64,000 nucleotides of DNA, taken from the NCBI GenBank assembly GCA_963664305.2, contig CAXXLV010000001.1, positions 352,001 through 416,000 on the forward strand, read 5' to 3'. This DNA comes from an uncultured Aliarcobacter sp. (GTDB lineage Bacteria > Campylobacterota > Campylobacteria > Campylobacterales > Arcobacteraceae). Positions 38,885-46,527 of this stretch are shown here, in pieces. Made by a program: the position numbers and the translations under genes. Under the pieces are notes generated by a model. The model had not been told where the DNA came from, did not search any database, and saw only the letters and a list, made by a program, of their open reading frames with translations. The first letter of the stretch is position 1; the number at the start of each line of letters is the position of its first letter.

Positions 38885-40042
38885 TTAGAATTTATAAGAA
38901 ACATAAAGTCTTGATCTATAACTCTCTTCAGCCAATTTATCATAAGTAGCAACTACTAAAGTTGTAGATAAATTTTTATTAAAACTATATTTAGTTACAA
39001 AATCTGTTTCAGATGCTCTTTTTTCATCACCTGTTTTCCATGCATAATATTGTACGTCAAATGATAAATCATCTAATATCTTATATCCAGCAGCTAATTT
39101 ATAAGCATCAGTATCTGCTGTATAAACTCCACCATAAATCCATGAAGCAGTATATAAATAATCAGCTCCATTTCCAATTCCAGGATAGATATCACCACTT
39201 TCATCAATATTTGTATATGCAGTACCTAAAGATAATTTTCCTAAATTAACATCTAAATTAATTCCGTATTCTTTACCTCTTGAATTTGTATCTTCACCGT
39301 TATCTGTTTGATATGATTGAAGTCCAATTGTGAATGGTTTAATATCATATGCTGTAGCGATATAAAATGCTTTTGTATCATCAGTAGAATCATTACTATT
39401 TAACTGTAAATATTGAGTATCTACATTTAAATTTTCAATTGATTTATTATTCACATATAAAGTATAAGCTCCATCTTCAATTTGTTCGAAATCAGAAACT
39501 TTTTTTACTTCATTTCCACCTGATGCAATATTTGTTCTATATTGTTCTTTATCAACATATGCAGCTAAAATTGTTGTATTTGGTAAATCACTATTTGTTA
39601 CAACAACTCCTTCAAATGCCTCTTTAAATATTCTAGAACCAGAACCTTCTAATAATGGAGTTGAAATATATTGTCTTCCAACTTTTACACTTGAATTATC
39701 AATTGTATATTGAATATAAGCTTGTGATAATACAGCTCCCGAAACATTTTGGTCTTTATTATATGCAGTTGTTGCATTATCTAAATCATCAGCAGTTACA
39801 GTTGAAGCTTGAACTGTAACACCTGCATTAAATCCATAAAAATCTCCAGTTACATATGATAAATTCCCACCATTAGTCCAAATACTAACTTTTTTGTCAG
39901 ATACTTCTTTTTGAAAATATTGAGATTTGATTTCACCACTTACTTTTCCCTCTTCAAATGCCTTTGCAAGAGTATCAGCACTAAATGCTTGTGTAGATAA
40001 AATTAAACTTGTAACTATTCCTAATTTTGTTATTTTTCTCAT
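38885..40042 (-). CDS. Outer membrane porin (OprD-like / Campylobacterota MOMP-like beta-barrel)
   Basis: Signal peptide, KVGRQYISTPL, amphipathic beta strands and C-terminal YVSYKF BAM signal. Confidence 0.82.
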   Translation of the reverse strand: MRKITKLGIVTSLILSTQAFSADTLAKAFEEGKVSGEIKSQYFQKEVSDKKVSIWTNGGNLSYVTGDFYGFNAGVTVQASTVTADDLDNATTAYNKDQNVSGAVLSQAYIQYTIDNSSVKVGRQYISTPLLEGSGSRIFKEAFEGVVVTNSDLPNTTILAAYVDKEQYRTNIASGGNEVKKVSDFEQIEDGAYTLYVNNKSIENLNVDTQYLQLNSNDSTDDTKAFYIATAYDIKPFTIGLQSYQTDNGEDTNSRGKEYGINLDVNLGKLSLGTAYTNIDESGDIYPGIGNGADYLYTASWIYGGVYTADTDAYKLAAGYKILDDLSFDVQYYAWKTGDEKRASETDFVTKYSFNKNLSTTLVVATYDKLAEESYRSRLYVSYKF

Positions 40043-40137
40043 GTTTTTTCTCCCCTGAATTAATTTTTTTCTAAAGGAAATTTATCATTTTGAAGTGTGT
40101 ATAAAGTAGCTAAAAAGAGTTTACTGAAGGAAAAAAA

Positions 40138-40172
40138 AGATTAATTTTTAGAAATAAATCTAAAATTAATCT
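40138..40172 (-). terminator. AT-rich hairpin after dedA
   Basis: AGATTAATTTTTAGA...TCTAAAATTAATCT inverted repeat, preceded on the plus strand by an A run (U tract on the minus strand). Confidence 0.45.
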
Positions 40173-40777
40173 TATATAATTTTTGCTTTTTTTGCTCTTT
40201 TGTAATAAAAAAAGCATAAAATTGAAACTAGAAGTAAAAGTATGATGATAATATAATGTAAATACTCTTTTATCAATCCTTCATTATCTCCTAAGAAATA
40301 ACCTAGCATTGCTAAAATTATAACCCAAATTCCTGCACCTAAACTTGTATATAAACAAAATACAAAAAGGTTCATTTTTGCTAAACCAGCAGGGAAAGAG
40401 ATATATTGTCTAATTACAGGTATTAATCTTCCTGAAAAAGTTGAGATATGACCATGAGCTTTAAAGAATTTTTCCATTTTTACAATAGTTTCTTCTTTAA
40501 CAAAAAAATATTTACCATATTTTATTAAGACTTTTCGCCCTAATTTTATAGCAAGATAATAGTTAAACAAAGCGCCAGCTAAAGAACCTAATATTCCAAA
40601 AAGAATAACTAGATACATATTCATTTCACCCTTGTATGCCAAATAACCTGCTGGTATCATAACAACTTCTGAAGGAAATGGGAAAAAAGAACTTTCTAAA
40701 AACATCATAATAAAAATACCTATATAGCCTAAACTTCCTACAGTTTCAACTATAAAATTGATTATATTAGCTAGCAA
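40172..40777 (-). CDS. DedA family membrane protein
   Basis: [19 protein letters not shown] and [16 protein letters not shown]. Confidence 0.9.
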
Positions 40778-40786
40778 GAGGTTCCT

Positions 40787-41305
40787 TTAGATTAATTTCT
40801 TCCATTTTGAAATAGAATTATTTATAAGTTCAAAGATTTTTTCATTTGTAGGTTCAGTTTCATCAAAATAGTCAGATACAATTTTTAGAACATAATAATC
40901 TTTGATATTTTCTTTACAAATTTCAGAAAAAAACAAAGCTTGTTTATCCACAAGCAAAGTATCTAAATCTTCATCTGTTTCAAGATTTTTTTCTACAGTA
41001 GTAATATTAGCAAAGTTCAAACCACCAACAAAACGGTTTGTACAAAAAAGTGTTCCTAAAGCAATACTTCCATCACTACAAGAAGCTATACTTAAATCAA
41101 ATGCTTTTGAGATTGAGTAGTTTTTAAAGATATAATCTAATGACTTAACTATTAAATCTTTACTTGTTCCAGATATTATTAGTAAAGTATCATCGTTAGA
41201 ATATATTTTGTTTTCACAAGTAGTTTCTAATTCTTTTAAATTAAAAAAATCGATAATCGGTTTTGCTTCGATTATCGATGTTGTGTGAATTAAGATTTGA
41301 GACAT
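40787..41305 (-). CDS. Hypothetical protein with a degenerate nucleoside phosphorylase/MTAN-like fold
   Basis: IEAKPII, ITTV and LKIVSD resemble PNP_UDP-family segments, but the usual DME motif reads DKQ. Confidence 0.5.
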   Translation of the reverse strand: MSQILIHTTSIIEAKPIIDFFNLKELETTCENKIYSNDDTLLIISGTSKDLIVKSLDYIFKNYSISKAFDLSIASCSDGSIALGTLFCTNRFVGGLNFANITTVEKNLETDEDLDTLLVDKQALFFSEICKENIKDYYVLKIVSDYFDETEPTNEKIFELINNSISKWKKLI

Positions 41306-41335
41306 AAATCAGAACTAAGACTAAGTCTTAATTTA

Positions 41336-41692
41336 CTATTTTTTTAACTCTTTAATTCTTGCAGCTTTACCTTTTAATCCTCTTAAGAAGTGAAGTTTAG
41401 CTCTTCTTACTCTTCCTTTTCTTACAACTTCAAAAGTTTTTAAAGACTCAGAGTATAATGGGAAAATTCTTTCTACACCAATTGAATTTGCACCGATTTT
41501 TCTAACTGTGAAAGTAGCATCAACACCATTTCCACTTCTAGCAATAACAATACCTTCAAAAAGCTGAATTCTTTTTTTCTCACCTTCTTTAATTTCAACA
41601 CCAAGTCTTACAGTATCTCCTGCTTTGAACTGTGGAATTTGTTTTTCTGCAATTTGCGCTGCTTCAAAGCTTGCAATGTATCTATTTTTCAT
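41336..41692 (-). CDS. rplS: 50S ribosomal protein L19; start ATG 41692
   Basis: [33 protein letters not shown] and [17 protein letters not shown]. Confidence 0.97.
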
Positions 41693-41709
41693 TGTATTTC
41701 CCTTTGGCG

Positions 41710-41748
41710 AAAGTGCCCGCATTTGCAACTTGCGGGGTATCACACTTT
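41710..41748 (-). ncRNA. Candidate structured cis-regulatory RNA between trmD and rplS
   Basis: GC-rich island in an AT-rich genome; minus strand AAAGUG-ugauac-CCCGCA-aguugcaaa-UGCGGG-CACUUU, a two-helix hairpin. Confidence 0.5.
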
Positions 41749-42437
41749 TATTTAAATTTTTTGTTTGTAACTAAACCTGGTCTAAAGTATTTTGTTTTGC
41801 AAATAGCCAGATTGGTTTTTAGGTCGGCAATTTTACTATGGTTTCCCTTTAAAAATTCTTTAACTACACTTAAATTTTGAAAATTTTCAGGTTTTGTAAA
41901 AGATGGTGCTTCAAGCATATTATTTTCATAGCTTTCAACATCCAAAGAATCAGCATTTCCAAGTACATTATCAACATTTCTAGAAATTGCATCTGCCATT
42001 ACTGTTGAAGCTAATTCTCCTCCTGTTAAAATATAATCACCAATACTAAATACTTCATTTGCATATTTTTCAATAACTCTTTCATCAATTCCTTCATATC
42101 TTCCACTTACAAATACAATATTTTTTTTCTTTGCTAATCTTTTTGCATCATTTTGTTTAAATGGTTTTGCAGCTGCTAGTGGAAATATAATATAGGCATC
42201 TTCATTTTTCTTTTTTATTTCATCTAAACAATCAAATAATGGTTGACAAAAAAGAAGCATACCTGCTCCTCCTCCTACAATTTGGTCATCAACCTTTTTA
42301 TGTTTATTAGTTGTAAAATCTCTTGGATTATAAAACTCGTAAGATATAAAATTTGATTCAACTGCTCTTTTTAAAATAGAATCTTGAAAATATGGTTCTA
42401 TAAGATTTGGGAAAAGTGTTACAAATGTAAATTTCAA
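41748..42437 (-). CDS. trmD: tRNA (guanine-N1)-methyltransferase TrmD (TTG start)
   Basis: VTLFP, VDD...[16 protein letters not shown] and [11 protein letters not shown]. Confidence 0.95.
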
Positions 42438-42487
42438 AATAAAATCTAGCCTTTTTTAGTTGAAATATTAACATATTTATTTTTATT

Positions 42488-42493
42488 TATAAT
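42488..42493 (+). promoter_or_regulatory. Putative -10 box driving the leader ORF-metE transcript
   Basis: TATAAT about 50 nt upstream of the leader ORF start; no comparable -10 seen between the leader ORF and metE. Confidence 0.45.
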
Positions 42494-42544
42494 TAAGCAT
42501 TTATTCTTTACACTTCCCACCTTATTTAAATAAAAGGTTATTAC

Positions 42545-42889
42545 TTGAAATTACTAAACGGTTTTGGGAAAAAGTATTTTACACTTTCTTCAATACAAGC
42601 ACACTCTGTTGCACCAAAATTACATAGTATTGTTACATCTAGTAAAAATTATTTAAATAAAAAATTATCGATATCTTCAGAATGTGATGAAGAGGAAGAA
42701 TCACCTCCAAATCTTCAAGAAAATTTATCATTACCTATTTTATTAAATTCGAAACCTTGTCACTGTGATTGTTTTTTTAAAAGAAGAACTGCACTAGCAG
42801 TAAGTCTATTTAAATTTATTCCAAGATGTCCATTTTATTGCACATTTTTTGCTTTTAGAAGAACGGGTGTTCATCCTCCTATTACTTAA
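42545..42889 (+). CDS. Cys-rich leader ORF upstream of metE; candidate ribosome-arrest regulatory peptide
   Basis: AAAGG RBS 7 nt before TTG; 114 open codons in very AT-rich DNA; CHCDC and CPFYC motifs; C-terminal RRTGVHPPIT; 3' end complementary to the metE RBS and start region. Confidence 0.7.
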   Translation: MKLLNGFGKKYFTLSSIQAHSVAPKLHSIVTSSKNYLNKKLSISSECDEEEESPPNLQENLSLPILLNSKPCHCDCFFKRRTALAVSLFKFIPRCPFYCTFFAFRRTGVHPPIT

Positions 42890-42951
42890 TTAATCTAACA
42901 ACTTAACAAAAATATTTAAACAATAAATTATTAATAATCAAAGGATTAATT

Positions 42952-45222
42952 ATGCAAAAAAATTATGTAATAGGATTTCCAAGAATTGGAGAAAAAAGAG
43001 AACTTAAAAAAGTTTTAGAAAAATATTGGTCAAAACAAACTGATTTTAATGAAGTAAAATTTGTAGCAGAAAGTTTGAAAAAAAGACATTGGAATTATCA
43101 AAGAGAAGCAAAGATAGATTTTATCTCTTCAAATGATTTTTCATATTATGACAATATGTTAGATACATCTATATTATTAGGTGCTATTCCAAAAAGATTT
43201 GAAAACTTAAAAAATGAAGAACTATATTTTGCAATGGCAAGAGGAAATGACTCTTGTGTCGCAATGGAAATGACTAAATGGTTTAACACAAACTACCATT
43301 ATATTGTTCCTGAAATTTCAAAAGACACAATATTTAGATTAAATAGTAAAAAAGTAATTGAAGAGTACAAAGAAGCACTTGATTTAGGAATTAAAACAAA
43401 AATAAATCTAATTGGAGCAATAACATATCTTGGACTTTCAAAAAGTGTAGATAATAGTGATATTTTTTTACACATTAATAATGTAGTTGAAGTATATAAA
43501 GAATTATTGTTAGAAATTTCAAAACTAGATGATGAAATTATCGTTCAATTTGATGAACCATTATTTGTAAAAGATTTAGATACAAAAATTTTATCTTTAA
43601 TCAAACCAGTTTATGATGCCCTAGCTTTGGTTGCATCAAATATAAAAATAGTTGTAACAACATATTTTGAACATTCAAATGAAGCAACAAAAATATTAGT
43701 TAATACTCCAATTTGGGCATTAGGTTTAGATTTTATTCATGGAAATAAAAATCTTGAAGTTTTAGAACTTATCAAAAACTCAAATAAAATTTTAATTGCA
43801 GGAGTAATTGATGGAAGAAATATTTGGAAAAGTAATTTTCAAGATAAAGTAGAACTACTTGAAAAAATCTCAAAAACTATAAATAAAGAAAATATTATAG
43901 TTGGAACTTCTTGCTCACTTTTACATGTTCCATTTACTTTAAATTATGAAGAAAAATTAGATAAAGAGATAAAATCTTGGTTAGCATTTGCAAATGAGAA
44001 GTTAAAAGAGTTATCACTTGTATCTAAACAATTTTTTGACTTCAAACTAAATTTAGAAGAGTTATCTACAATAAAAAGAAATATTGAAGATAATAATCAA
44101 AGAAAGATTTCTTCAAAAATTCACAATATTAAAATTCAAGATGAAATAAAAAATCTTAAAAATTTTGAAAGAGTAGATAAGTTTCAAAATAGAATAAAAG
44201 TTCAAAGAGAATTTTTCAAATATGATTTTTTAACAACTACAACTATTGGTTCATTCCCTCAAACTCCAGAGATTAGAGAAAATAGAAAACAATATAAAGT
44301 AAATGCCATTTCAAAAGAGCAATATGAAAATGAAATCAAAAAATATATTGACGATTGTGTAGCTTTTCAAGATGAAATTGGACTTGATGTTCTAGTTCAT
44401 GGAGAACCTGAAAGAAATGATATGGTTGAATATTTTGGAGAATTAATGGATGGATTTGTATTTACACAAAATGCCTGGGTTCAATCTTATGGTAGTCGTT
44501 GTGTAAAACCACCTTTAATTTATGGTGATGTTTCAAGACCAAATCCAATGACTGTTGAGTGGATAAAATATGCTCAAAGTAAAACTAAAAAAGTTATGAA
44601 AGGTATGTTAACAGGACCAGTTACTATTTTAAATTGGTCATTTGTAAGAGATGATATATCAAGAAATGAAGTTGCAAAGCAAATTGCATTTGCTATAAAC
44701 AAAGAAGTAGATGATTTACAAAATGCTGGAATAAAAATGATTCAAGTTGATGAAGCAGCATTTAAAGAAGGTTATCCTTTAAGAGCTGAAAACATTAAAG
44801 CTTATGAAAATTGGGCAGTTGATAATTTCAAATTAAGTGTTAGTTGTGCAAAAGCAGACACTCAAATTCATACACACATGTGTTATAGCGAATTTAATGA
44901 CATTATTAAAACTATTGAAGCTATGGATGCTGATGTTATTTCAATCGAAACTGCACGTAGTGGAAATAGACTTTTAAAAATCTTTAAAGAAGTAGCTTAC
45001 AAACAAGAAATTGGTCCTGGAATTTATGATATTCATAGTCCTAGAGTTCCAAGTGTTGAAGAGATGGTGAAACAAATTGAAGCTTTAATCGAAGTTTTAC
45101 CAAAAGAACAATTATGGATAAACCCTGATTGTGGATTAAAAACTAGAAAATGGCCAGAAGTAAAACAAAGTCTAAAAAATATGGTTGAAGCAGTGAAAAT
45201 TGTTAAAGAAAAAAATTACTAG
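42952..45222 (+). CDS. metE: Cobalamin-independent methionine synthase
   Basis: GFPRIGEKRELK, EMTKWFNTNYHY, TTTIGSFPQT, HGEPERNDMVEYF, Zn ligands HTHMC and NPDCGLKTR. Confidence 0.97.
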   Translation: MQKNYVIGFPRIGEKRELKKVLEKYWSKQTDFNEVKFVAESLKKRHWNYQREAKIDFISSNDFSYYDNMLDTSILLGAIPKRFENLKNEELYFAMARGNDSCVAMEMTKWFNTNYHYIVPEISKDTIFRLNSKKVIEEYKEALDLGIKTKINLIGAITYLGLSKSVDNSDIFLHINNVVEVYKELLLEISKLDDEIIVQFDEPLFVKDLDTKILSLIKPVYDALALVASNIKIVVTTYFEHSNEATKILVNTPIWALGLDFIHGNKNLEVLELIKNSNKILIAGVIDGRNIWKSNFQDKVELLEKISKTINKENIIVGTSCSLLHVPFTLNYEEKLDKEIKSWLAFANEKLKELSLVSKQFFDFKLNLEELSTIKRNIEDNNQRKISSKIHNIKIQDEIKNLKNFERVDKFQNRIKVQREFFKYDFLTTTTIGSFPQTPEIRENRKQYKVNAISKEQYENEIKKYIDDCVAFQDEIGLDVLVHGEPERNDMVEYFGELMDGFVFTQNAWVQSYGSRCVKPPLIYGDVSRPNPMTVEWIKYAQSKTKKVMKGMLTGPVTILNWSFVRDDISRNEVAKQIAFAINKEVDDLQNAGIKMIQVDEAAFKEGYPLRAENIKAYENWAVDNFKLSVSCAKADTQIHTHMCYSEFNDIIKTIEAMDADVISIETARSGNRLLKIFKEVAYKQEIGPGIYDIHSPRVPSVEEMVKQIEALIEVLPKEQLWINPDCGLKTRKWPEVKQSLKNMVEAVKIVKEKNY

Positions 45223-45239
45223 AGCTTTTGCTCTAGTAA
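45216..45239 (+). terminator. Hairpin at the end of metE
   Basis: TTACTAGAGC-tttt-GCTCTAGTAA, 10-bp perfect stem with a weak U tract. Confidence 0.6.
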
Positions 45240-45306
45240 GAATATGTTTTGTTATAACTTAATTATGATAAAACATATTTTTAGATAATATTCGGGAATT
45301 ATAAAA

Positions 45307-46527
45307 ATGAGAAAAGAAACTATGATTACATTAAATGATATAAAAGAAGCAAAAAAAAGATTATCAAATACAGTTCACGCAACTCCACTTATGAAAGCTC
45401 CTATTTTAAGTAAAGAAAAAAATGCAGAAATTTTTCTAAAAGAGGATAACTTACAATTAACAGGAAGTTTTAAAATTAGAGGTGCTTTTAATAGAGTTGC
45501 TTTGCTTGATGAAACTAGAAGAAAAAATGGTGTTGTTGCAGCAAGTGCAGGGAATCATGCACAAGGTTTAGCTTTTGCGGCACAACACTTCAATTGTGAA
45601 GCAACTATTTTTATGCCAGAAGCAACTCCACTTACAAAAGTTTCAGGAGTTAAATCTTATGGAGCAAATGTTGTTTTAACTGGTGAAAATTTTGATGAAG
45701 CATATGCAGCAGCTACAAAATTTGCAAAAGAAAACAATAAAGAGTTTATTCATCCATTTGCAGATGATGCTGTTATTGCAGGGCAAGGGACAATTGCATT
45801 AGAAATTTTAGAAAAAATTGACGATATTGACCACATTATTGTACCAATTGGTGGTGGAGGTTTAATCTCTGGAATTGCAATTGCGGCAAAAGCAATCAAT
45901 CCAAATATTAGAATCACAGGTGTTGTTGCAAGTGGTGCAAGAGGGATGAAAGACTCATTCGAAGCAAGACTTCCTATAGATTCTTCAAGTGTTAGAACAA
46001 TTGCAGATGGAATTGCAGTTCGTGATGTAACACCAAAATTACTTGAAATCATTTTAGAATATGTAGATGAAATTGTTGAAGTAAGTGATAATGAAACTGC
46101 TAATGCAATTTTATTTTTATTAGAAAAACATAAACTTATGGTTGAAGGTGCAGGTGCTGTAGCAACTGCTGCAATCATGCATAATAAAGTTAATGTTGAA
46201 AATGAAAAAGTTTGTGCAATAGTAAGTGGTGGAAATATTGATGTCACTATGTTATCTTTAATTATTGATAAAGGATTAGTAAAATCATTTAGAAAAATGA
46301 ATCTAATCGTAACACTTATGGATAAACCAGGTGCTTTAATGCATTTAACAGAAATTTTCAAAACTTGTTCAGCAAATATTGTTCAAATAGATTATGATAG
46401 AAACTCTATAAAACTGGAGTTTGGTGAAGCTCATGTTACAATTGCACTTGAAACAAAAGGTGAAGAGCATCAAGAACTAATAAGAGAAAATTTGAAACAA
46501 AATGGTTACAGATATAAACAAATTTAA
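45307..46527 (+). CDS. ilvA: Threonine ammonia-lyase with a C-terminal ACT domain (start may be ATG 45322)
   Basis: LQLTGSFKIRGA, ASAGNHAQG, PIGGGGL, SGGNID and DKPG (ACT). Confidence 0.9.
   Translation: MRKETMITLNDIKEAKKRLSNTVHATPLMKAPILSKEKNAEIFLKEDNLQLTGSFKIRGAFNRVALLDETRRKNGVVAASAGNHAQGLAFAAQHFNCEATIFMPEATPLTKVSGVKSYGANVVLTGENFDEAYAAATKFAKENNKEFIHPFADDAVIAGQGTIALEILEKIDDIDHIIVPIGGGGLISGIAIAAKAINPNIRITGVVASGARGMKDSFEARLPIDSSSVRTIADGIAVRDVTPKLLEIILEYVDEIVEVSDNETANAILFLLEKHKLMVEGAGAVATAAIMHNKVNVENEKVCAIVSGGNIDVTMLSLIIDKGLVKSFRKMNLIVTLMDKPGALMHLTEIFKTCSANIVQIDYDRNSIKLEFGEAHVTIALETKGEEHQELIRENLKQNGYRYKQI

Follow-up and report, generated by a model that had tools for sequence, protein, structure and literature searches.

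What controls metE, the gene of the cobalamin-independent methionine synthase, where no riboswitch can be recognised in front of it? The locus that raises this question lies in a 64,000-nucleotide stretch of the genome of an uncultured Aliarcobacter species (GenBank assembly GCA_963664305.2, contig CAXXLV010000001.1, positions 352,001 to 416,000 of the forward strand), which we call the window and in which all positions are counted from its first letter. Where bacterial genes respond to B12, riboswitches are generally held responsible. In the window, the 514-nucleotide space between trmD and metE is filled by an open reading frame (ORF), hereafter the leader ORF, which a preliminary description of the locus had proposed to encode a ribosome-stalling leader peptide. 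We found that this ORF belongs to a widespread and unannotated family that reaches far beyond the window and bears the hallmarks of a proline-pause nascent-chain sensor. We lean, with somewhat better than even confidence, towards the view that the peptide acts in cis as a nascent-chain leader that sets metE translation, with corrinoid (B12) or cobalt as its signal.

The ORF in front of metE is conserved as a protein

Read from the sequence, the leader ORF spans positions 42545 to 42889 on the plus strand and comprises 114 codons plus the stop, with TTG as the start codon. A Shine-Dalgarno (SD) sequence, AAAAGG (42532..42537, plus strand), lies 7 nt 5' of the TTG, and a TATAAT box (42488..42493, plus strand) may be the -10 box of a leader-metE transcript; a similar A/T box followed by TTAAG is kept about 50 nt 5' of the TTG in relatives. 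The encoded peptide has no internal methionine and contains six cysteines (C47, C72, C74, C76, C96, and C100), including those of the motifs CHCDC and CPFYC. C47 is part of an acidic tract, ECDEEEESPP, and the C terminus reads FRRTGVHPPIT. The stop codon is 62 nt away from the ATG of metE (42952..45222, plus strand), which encodes 756 amino acids and matches Pfam Meth_synt_1 (E 9e-118) and Meth_synt_2 (E 4e-151). On the other side lies trmD (41748-42437, minus strand), assigned by Pfam. The preliminary description had listed these features of the ORF, namely its coordinates, ribosome-binding site (RBS), TATAAT box, cysteine motifs, acidic Pro-Pro tract, HPP end, and 62-nt gap, and all of them were confirmed in the sequence.

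When 24 genomes of the same genus were searched in six frames, 21 gave a strong match uninterrupted by stops (E<=3e-38). Among the three genomes without a strong match, one (G009) has no metE, and the two others are 87% (G006) and 77% (G015) complete. The gene order trmD (on the opposite strand), ORF, metE was found in all 22 same-genus loci, two of which end at a contig edge before metE. The TTG start is conserved, with AAGGA or AGGAG 6 to 8 nt 5' of it, in the 11 same-genus loci listed, the window locus not being among them.

In the codon alignment of 22 sequences, 42 residue columns are invariant, and 36 of these use more than one codon, the codons differing at third positions or at the first positions of leucine or arginine codons. 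The ratio of nonsynonymous to synonymous substitution rates (dN/dS, Nei-Gojobori) was below 1 in all of the 189 pairs that had dS<=1.5, the median being 0.32. It amounted to 0.25 over the N-terminal 31 columns, 0.69 in the middle, and 0.096 over the last 43 columns. In a high-GC relative (L024), compared with the window, the residues are kept while the third codon positions track the G+C content of its own genome. These comparative data confirm the leader ORF as a real, translated gene under protein-level selection. Conservation in relatives, synteny with metE, and dN/dS below 1, which the preliminary description had named as supporting its proposal, were thus all borne out, and conservation is indeed concentrated where it had been anticipated, on the cysteine motif and on the terminal G-x-x-P-P.

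The leader ORF belongs to a large family with an invariant C-terminal Pro-Pro

A large protein collection contained 252 relatives of the leader peptide at E<=0.01. None of them has a Pfam domain, and those that bear a name are all called "hypothetical protein" and come from Arcobacter, Aliarcobacter, Poseidonibacter, Halarcobacter, or Malaciobacter. For wider searches we used a profile (A1) built on an alignment of 18 sequences, and the anatomy of the family was derived from a second alignment (A2) of 82 diverse representatives. The A1 profile matched 251 of 401 genomes and 60 of the 96 genera of the order, and the profile also matched 151 representative clusters among 1.84 billion proteins. 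Searching Pfam with the leader ORF (E<=1) returned no family, the 82 members gave only scattered chance matches in Pfam, and the ESM Atlas contained no usable match to the leader protein.

The association with metE extends over the family as well. metE lies downstream in 24 of the first 26 loci, the remaining 2 being cut at contig ends, and it lies directly downstream in 39 of 40 loci sampled from families other than that of the window. At the one exception (L102, on contig 8 of G059), the leader frame reads without a stop into a protein resembling a TonB-dependent receptor, giving a single frame of 731 amino acids. The leader frame is likewise continuous with a TonB-dependent receptor in protein P0258, annotated with 344 amino acids. 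These continuous frames could be natural fusions, sequencing errors, or programmed read-through.

Family members share a plan of five parts, all on the plus strand in the window. The first is an N-terminal motif, [KR]GFGK.YF.L.AIQA, represented in the window by GFGKKYFTLSSIQA (residues 6 to 19, 42560..42601), which is homologous to the signal peptide of BtuB-like TonB-dependent receptors. The second is a variable acidic stretch, a run of glutamates and aspartates that leads into PP or PPP in the majority of members; its counterpart in the window is the tract with an internal Pro-Pro at residues 46 to 55 (42680..42709), and in some species of the same genus it is absent. It is followed by PCHC[ND]C (PCHCDC in the window, residues 71 to 76, 42755..42772) and, about 20 residues later, by a second cysteine or CxC (RCPFYC in the window, residues 95 to 100, 42827..42844, from the same-genus alignment). 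The fifth part is ..[ST]G[VIL][HAS]PP or ..xSPP, which precedes an unconserved tail of 0 to 39 residues. In the window this part is the candidate arrest motif FRRTGVHPP (residues 104 to 112, 42854..42880), with the Pro-Pro codons at 42875-42880.

Only three positions are invariant in the 82 representatives, Tyr11, Pro111, and Pro112, and Gly6, Phe7, Phe12, Leu14, Ile17, Ala19, and Cys74 are nearly so. In the 18-sequence alignment, P71, C74, and G108 are invariant and H73 almost is. C96 is invariant in the genus, C100 is replaced by D, T, or N in many species, and distant members have CxC at this second cysteine site. The residue preceding the Pro-Pro is S in 44 of the 82 representatives, H in 18, A in 16, T in 3, and F in 1, and it is never R; the commonest triplets before it are GVH, GLA, VSS, GIS, and GIA. 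A C-terminal PPP was found in none of the 82. Of 61 sequences, 36 have a spacing of 33 residues from C74 to the first proline, and 14 have one of 36 residues, as does the window. The absence of internal methionine, put forward earlier as a trait of the peptide, is true of the window ORF and does not hold as a rule of the family, since 49 of the 82 representatives have none and 33 have one to three. Short forms of 60 to 80 residues that consist of the C-terminal core only occur as well (L023, L025, L049, L051, and family f11).

AlphaFold, run on the A2 alignment, predicted helices at residues 14 to 46 and 75 to 91 and coil elsewhere, including the last 23 residues, with a mean predicted local distance difference test score (pLDDT) of 80 and a predicted template modelling score (pTM) of 0.41. 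According to this model the leader peptide forms no compact domain.

Family members also head B12 and cobalt genes

In 15 complete or near-complete genomes from five families, the profile gave exactly two matches per genome, 30 in total. Half of them (15/30) are leaders in front of metE. Eight are the N termini of TonB-dependent receptors, in which the motif forms the n- and h-regions of the receptor's own signal peptide, five are separate small ORFs in front of a TonB-dependent receptor, and two are small ORFs in front of cbiM-cbiK. The small ORFs before receptors are either full length or 51 to 60 residues long, with ends such as ..SPPAA, ..SPPYPSC, and ..APPVLSA. The short paralogs (L035, L036, L052, L061, and L062) are without CHCxC and keep the N-terminal motif and the late Pro-Pro; with 51 to 78 residues, the paralogs that lack the cysteine core hold the same position before other operons.

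When 10 of the receptors were tested, 7 had a vitamin B12 receptor model as their best match, with scores below the curated cut-offs and mostly partial sequences. Downstream of leader-headed receptors we found Peripla_BP_2, ABC_tran, and FecCD genes, which together correspond to a BtuFCD-type transporter, and after these an APH-type kinase, a class I/II aminotransferase, CobQ, CobU, CobD/CbiB, and a nitroreductase-family (BluB-like) gene. The cbiM locus goes on with CbiK and a corrin methylase. The preliminary description had left the signal open between Zn or Co, thiol, redox, and SAM (S-adenosylmethionine) or Met; the paralog sites at genes for B12 uptake, B12 salvage, and cobalt now point to a corrinoid or to cobalt.

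Two loci deserve separate mention. In G027 (contig 1, about 145247-150005; L024/L034), a BtuB-like receptor carrying the leader motif, a leader ORF, and metE stand head to tail on one strand, the receptor stop being about a dozen bases 5' of the leader start. In G340 (contig 1; L109), a YcaO-family gene (540 amino acids) lies inside an otherwise B12-uptake-like operon, downstream of a leader-headed receptor and BtuFCD-like genes.

The N terminus of the leader clearly goes back to the signal peptide of a BtuB-type receptor. In the window ORF the hydrophobic core of this segment is weak, the best 10-residue hydropathy being 0.83, compared with a family median of 1.47 and values of 2.1 to 2.3 in the receptors. 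The earlier statement that the ORF has no evident signal peptide is doubtful in view of this homology, although the core in the window ORF is weak.

Elsewhere, cobalamin riboswitches control the same gene sets, namely metE, btuB-type receptors, btuFCD/cob, and cbi genes. The leader family thus resembles the cobalamin riboswitch (RF00174) in its positions, in front of metE, of btuB-type receptors with btuFCD/cob genes, and of cbiM/cbiK, and differs from it in being a translated peptide rather than a structured RNA. The riboswitch itself turned up in 5 of 41 relatives, each of them from the genus of the window and with one copy, and 16 genomes from other families gave none. One of these five, the window genome (G000), has its canonical RF00174 riboswitch (83 bits) on contig 2, at 150748-150950 (L042), and a large CobN-like ORF follows about 850 nt downstream. 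The same model gave no match at the 5' region of metE, neither at E<=1 in the window (40000-46000) nor at E<=0.1 in 17 related loci. Searching positions 40000-46000 against Rfam at E<=1 returned nothing but a chance microRNA match, in line with the earlier observation that no riboswitch is recognisable there.

Predicted base pairing between the end of the leader and the metE ribosome-binding site

Between the stop of the leader and the start of metE lie 12 to 309 nt, depending on the locus. A fixed distance to metE, which the preliminary description had expected, is thus not a property of the family; what is kept instead is a pairing. In the minimum free energy structure of the window sequence (L001), a predicted helix joins positions 42887-42896 with positions 42943-42952. 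The 5' arm belongs to the segment formed by the variable tail IT, the stop codon, and the first bases beyond (42881..42896), and the 3' arm to the segment 42941..42954, which holds the metE SD (AAGGA, 42941-42945) and ATG (42952-42954), both segments being on the plus strand.

Accessibility of the metE RBS was calculated for 49 loci with a leader-metE gap of at most 110 nt, as the opening energy of the SD/start region from -14 to +3. The 3' part of the leader was either left free or masked up to 13 nt beyond the second Pro codon, which mimics a stalled ribosome, and mononucleotide shuffles served as controls. Masking lowered the opening cost by a mean of 5.06 kcal/mol, compared with 2.05 kcal/mol when the leader part was shuffled, and the real effect was larger than its own shuffle control in 44 of the 49 loci. 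For metE of the window, the opening energy was 6.94 kcal/mol when free and 2.44 kcal/mol when masked. The region from -6 to +23 nt relative to the second Pro codon, which takes in the Pro-Pro codons, the tail, the stop, and a few bases beyond, accounts for about 68% of the SD core's pairing probability.

In 69 loci, the mean duplex energy was -9.1 kcal/mol for a locus paired with itself, -6.8 kcal/mol for pairs across loci, and -6.2 kcal/mol for shuffles. A locus pairs better with itself than the cross-locus mean in 54/69 cases and better than the shuffle mean in 60/69. The sequence of the helix varies across lineages while its two partners are constant; elsewhere, CU-rich stretches that start from CCUCCU pair with GGAG-rich RBSs. 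The peptide sequence of the tail would thus be free, and its position kept, because the tail/stop region pairs with the metE RBS.

Relatives with a long gap (123-309 nt; L002, L006, L008, L013, L014, L015, L018, and L022) carry an additional element of several hairpins between leader and metE. Its last hairpin, a GGTTCC...GGAACC stem followed by a T-run directly 5' of the metE SD, looks like a terminator; the window is without this element. Seven of these eight loci (all but L014) were searched in Rfam, and no match for the extra element was found. In 17 long-gap relatives, Rfam at E<=0.1 returned only a tRNA and a weak small RNA match.

Distribution of the leader relative to metE and metH

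We then compared the occurrence of the leader, of metE, and of the gene of the B12-dependent enzyme, metH, family by family. The leader is absent in three families that have metE without metH, namely f13 (leader 0/30, metE 26/30, metH 0/30), f25 (0/6, 5/6, 0/6), and f20 (0/3, 2/3, 0/3). It is nearly always present in families that have both enzymes, namely f1 (leader 37/39, metE 33/39, metH 38/39), f10 (11/11, 11/11, 8/11), f17 (20/22, 20/22, 17/22), and f23 (37/38, 29/38, 38/38). The genome of the window has metH. In f13, only 22-107 nt separate the preceding ORF from the ATG of metE, and a TATAAT-like box occurs in this stretch at several loci. The exception is family f11, which has the leader in 18/38 genomes, metE in 29/38, and metH in 0/38; at three of its loci (L119-L121, in G236, G388, and G411), a short leader of the form ...PLHCNCIF...FSLRRSGCHPP... 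stands upstream of metE.

Comparison with known leader peptides

Coupling of a metabolite to a pathway gene by a nascent chain is known from TnaC with tryptophan, SpeFL with ornithine, and Arabidopsis CGS1 with SAM, the last within methionine synthesis. In these cases the chain is short or the ligand is sensed in the exit tunnel, whereas the conserved chain of the leader family is some 110 residues long and a corrinoid does not fit into the tunnel. SecM, MifM, VemP, and the RAPP-type peptides ApdA and ApdP have a targeting segment at the N terminus and, at the C terminus, an arrest site that ends in proline, and they act on the RBS of the next gene via mRNA structure (cf. PMC10987492). The leader family likewise has a signal-peptide-related N-terminal segment, a Pro-ending C-terminal candidate site, and a predicted structure at the RBS. 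In contrast to the RAPP/RAPG peptides, no member has R-A-P-P, and the downstream genes are metE, TonB receptors, and cbiM, not Sec/YidC.

The closest likeness is to two copper-responsive leaders. In CruR of Bordetella pertussis, a CXXC motif stands at a fixed spacing (45 residues) from a C-terminal RAPP, and copper relieves the RAPP arrest, which shuts off the downstream transporter (PMC9426467). In CutF of Rhodobacter capsulatus, copper prolongs stalling, which melts a stem-loop covering the RBS of cutO (PMC9973294; 10.1101/2025.02.05.636593). According to these accounts (PMC9973294, PMC9426467), both leaders and the family described here consist of a small ORF of about 110-145 residues that heads an operon; the N terminus is of the signal peptide type in CutF and CruR and, in the leader family, homologous to a receptor signal peptide, with a weak core in the window. 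They further share a cysteine motif whose spacing from a C-terminal Pro-Pro is conserved. The Pro-Pro stands near the stop, 0 to 39 residues away in the leader family, and across the short gap to the next gene a helix, in the leader family a prediction only, masks the SD of that gene. Relatives of all of them precede TonB-dependent transporters. The differences, on the same accounts, lie in the cysteine motif (CHCxC, not CXXC or CxxxC), in its spacing (33 or 36 residues, not 45; PMC9426467), and in the ending, which is [S/H/A]-P-P, not RAPP as in CruR or PPP as in CutF (PMC9973294, PMC9426467). Moreover, MetE, the chief target, is an enzyme of the cytoplasm, and the regulon concerns B12 or cobalt, not copper detoxification. 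PF11162 (DUF2946), the Pfam family of CutF and CruR, matched none of the 82 family members at E<=1, and a search of 151 genomes of the phylum did not find it. The leader family is therefore best read as having the CutF/CruR-like architecture, feature by feature, in a new sequence family that does not match DUF2946.

A proposed nascent-chain mechanism for metE

The observations from which a mechanism has to start are the selection at the level of translation, the synteny, the invariance of the motifs, their fixed spacing, the predicted pairing with the RBS, and the pattern of the regulon. In the mechanism that we favour, the SD and start codon of metE would be paired, in the free mRNA, with the Pro-Pro codons, variable tail, and stop codon of the leader. 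The leader would be translated from its weak TTG, and the ribosome would pause at the invariant C-terminal Pro-Pro or terminate slowly just beyond it. While paused, the ribosome would cover the anti-RBS arm, so that the metE RBS would be exposed and metE translation could initiate. The conserved upstream nascent chain would tune the length of the pause in response to a ligand, and with the ribosome at Pro-Pro the Cys/His motif CHCxC would be 33-36 residues behind, close to where the exit tunnel opens. By analogy with CruR, the ligand might shorten the pause, turning metE off when the B12-dependent MetH can work; with a polarity like that of CutF, the ligand might instead prolong the pause and open the RBS.

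The signal is most likely corrinoid (B12) or cobalt status, because the paralogs head B12 and cobalt operons, the N terminus is of BtuB-type origin, and canonical B12 riboswitches are rare in these genomes. We also consider, more tentatively, that the whole family may be a protein-based counterpart of the cobalamin riboswitch. Its BtuB-derived N terminus and the CHCxC at the tunnel exit would then detect corrinoid or cobalt on the ribosome and alter the Pro-Pro pause, by release or by prolongation, and would thereby govern metE, B12 receptors, btuFCD/cob, and cbiM-cbiK across an order largely without B12 riboswitches. Full-text literature searches, whose scope did not include subscription-only papers, found no description of the leader family or of a peptide-based B12 leader.

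Several points weigh against this mechanism. We infer the pause, the ligand, the direction of control, and any N-terminal export from sequence. X-Pro-Pro alone is normally resolved by elongation factor P (EF-P), and the motif of the leader is not RAPP. There is no evident way for a nascent chain of about 100 residues to bind a corrinoid, and the riboswitch elsewhere in the window genome means that the lineage can sense B12 through RNA. With regard to the pairing, 15/69 loci pair no better than cross-locus pairs do, long-gap loci pair more weakly (-7.9 vs -9.6 kcal/mol) and hold extra hairpins, the RNA controls are mononucleotide shuffles only, and the loci are related to each other. A ribosome merely terminating at the leader stop would open the helix too, so that plain translational coupling fits the RNA data. 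Family f11, with a short-form leader and metE and with metH in none of 38 genomes, misfits a simple MetH/MetE switch, and the co-occurrence tallies are counted by family and are not phylogenetically independent. Finally, a promoter-like site at 42903-42931 lies within the leader-metE gap; it is no better than chance, and an independent metE start is possible.

Alternative explanations

We regard it as unlikely that the leader works by the same pausing mechanism and responds to another signal, be it zinc, thiol or redox state acting on the cysteines, or Met, SAM, or homocysteine. MetE is a zinc enzyme. Internal methionine is scarce in the family, f11 keeps the leader without metH, and the conserved Cys and His residues stand in CxC motifs, as they do in the metal-sensing CutF-like proteins (PMC9973294). 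The paralogs, however, precede operons for B12 uptake and salvage and cbiM-cbiK, not zinc, sulfur, or SAM genes, and the short paralogs without CHCxC imply that the cysteine motif cannot be the sole sensor.

Slightly less likely again is that the product is a stable small Cys-rich protein that acts in trans and is merely co-transcribed with metE, for instance a metal or corrinoid chaperone, a partner of MetE, or a peptide that is exported or sits in the membrane. Amino acid conservation is strong at about 45 residues, the two helices are predicted with confidence, and gene callers annotate the leader as a protein. Such a protein would be expected neither from the low pTM and the C-terminal coil, which give no compact fold, nor from an invariant Pro-Pro that is followed by a tail of any length and sequence. 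The complementarity of the tail/stop region to the downstream RBS, the 51-78-residue paralogs without the cysteine core at the same position before other operons, the conserved TTG start, and the lack of likeness to Pfam, Atlas, or solved families also speak against it.

Constitutive translational coupling, which we judge improbable, would have leader translation open the metE RBS in each round, with regulation exerted at leader initiation or at transcription and the peptide conserved for export or turnover. A ribosome terminating at 42887-42889 would indeed cover the whole helix arm, and the conservation of a weak TTG start suits this explanation. It leaves unexplained, however, the invariant Pro-Pro, the fixed Cys-to-PP spacing, and the dN/dS of 0.096 over the last 43 codons, as well as the reuse of the module before other operons of the B12 regulon.

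Lastly, although the leader occupies the site that in other bacteria belongs to the riboswitches of metE, btuB, and cbi genes, the idea that the conserved element is an RNA, an unrecognised riboswitch with an incidental open frame, has very little left in its favour and was rejected because of the codon-level selection, the conserved TTG/SD, and the residue conservation in L024: variation is synonymous, third positions follow genome G+C (L024 vs the window) with residues unchanged, the frame is open in all strong matches, and neither the window region nor 17 related loci matched Rfam.

Two further candidates were ruled out. Classical tRNA-sensing attenuation does not fit a leader without Met codons whose invariant feature is one Pro-Pro and no codon run, and a SecM-like secretion monitor does not fit a locus with no Sec gene downstream.

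Transcription signals around the leader ORF

A promoter consensus scan returned 3 promoter-like sites compared with 4.1 expected from shuffles, which supports neither a leader promoter nor an internal metE promoter. A hairpin scan returned 2 sites (one palindrome, seen on both strands) compared with 0.1 expected in shuffles. This palindrome, ACTGCACTAGCAGT at 42788-42801, forms a terminator-like hairpin of 5 pairs followed by a T-rich stretch, and it falls on the conserved TALAV codons of the leader ORF.

In metatranscriptomes, some contigs of relatives span the leader into metE (e.g., X17 record 28 and X1 record 1). In four sets, contig depth over the leader was low compared with trmD and metE; as contigs show no transcripts, starts, or levels, we drew no inference from it.

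Implications

A large and uncharacterised peptide family thus stands at riboswitch positions in an order in which the riboswitch is mostly not found (251/401 genomes compared with RF00174 in 5/41 relatives). The family provides a name and an annotation rule for hundreds of "hypothetical proteins". The hypothesis is directly testable, as the TTG start, C74/H73, P111/P112, and the helix 42887-42896/42943-42952 are all defined. If it is true, the leader family would be a second, independently evolved sequence family for the modulation of a Pro-Pro pause by the nascent chain, and the principle of CutF and CruR, a nascent-chain sensor combined with a proline pause, would extend from defence against toxic metals to the economy of a cofactor and to an enzyme of the cytoplasm. 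The choice that these bacteria make between MetE and MetH would then be explained as well.

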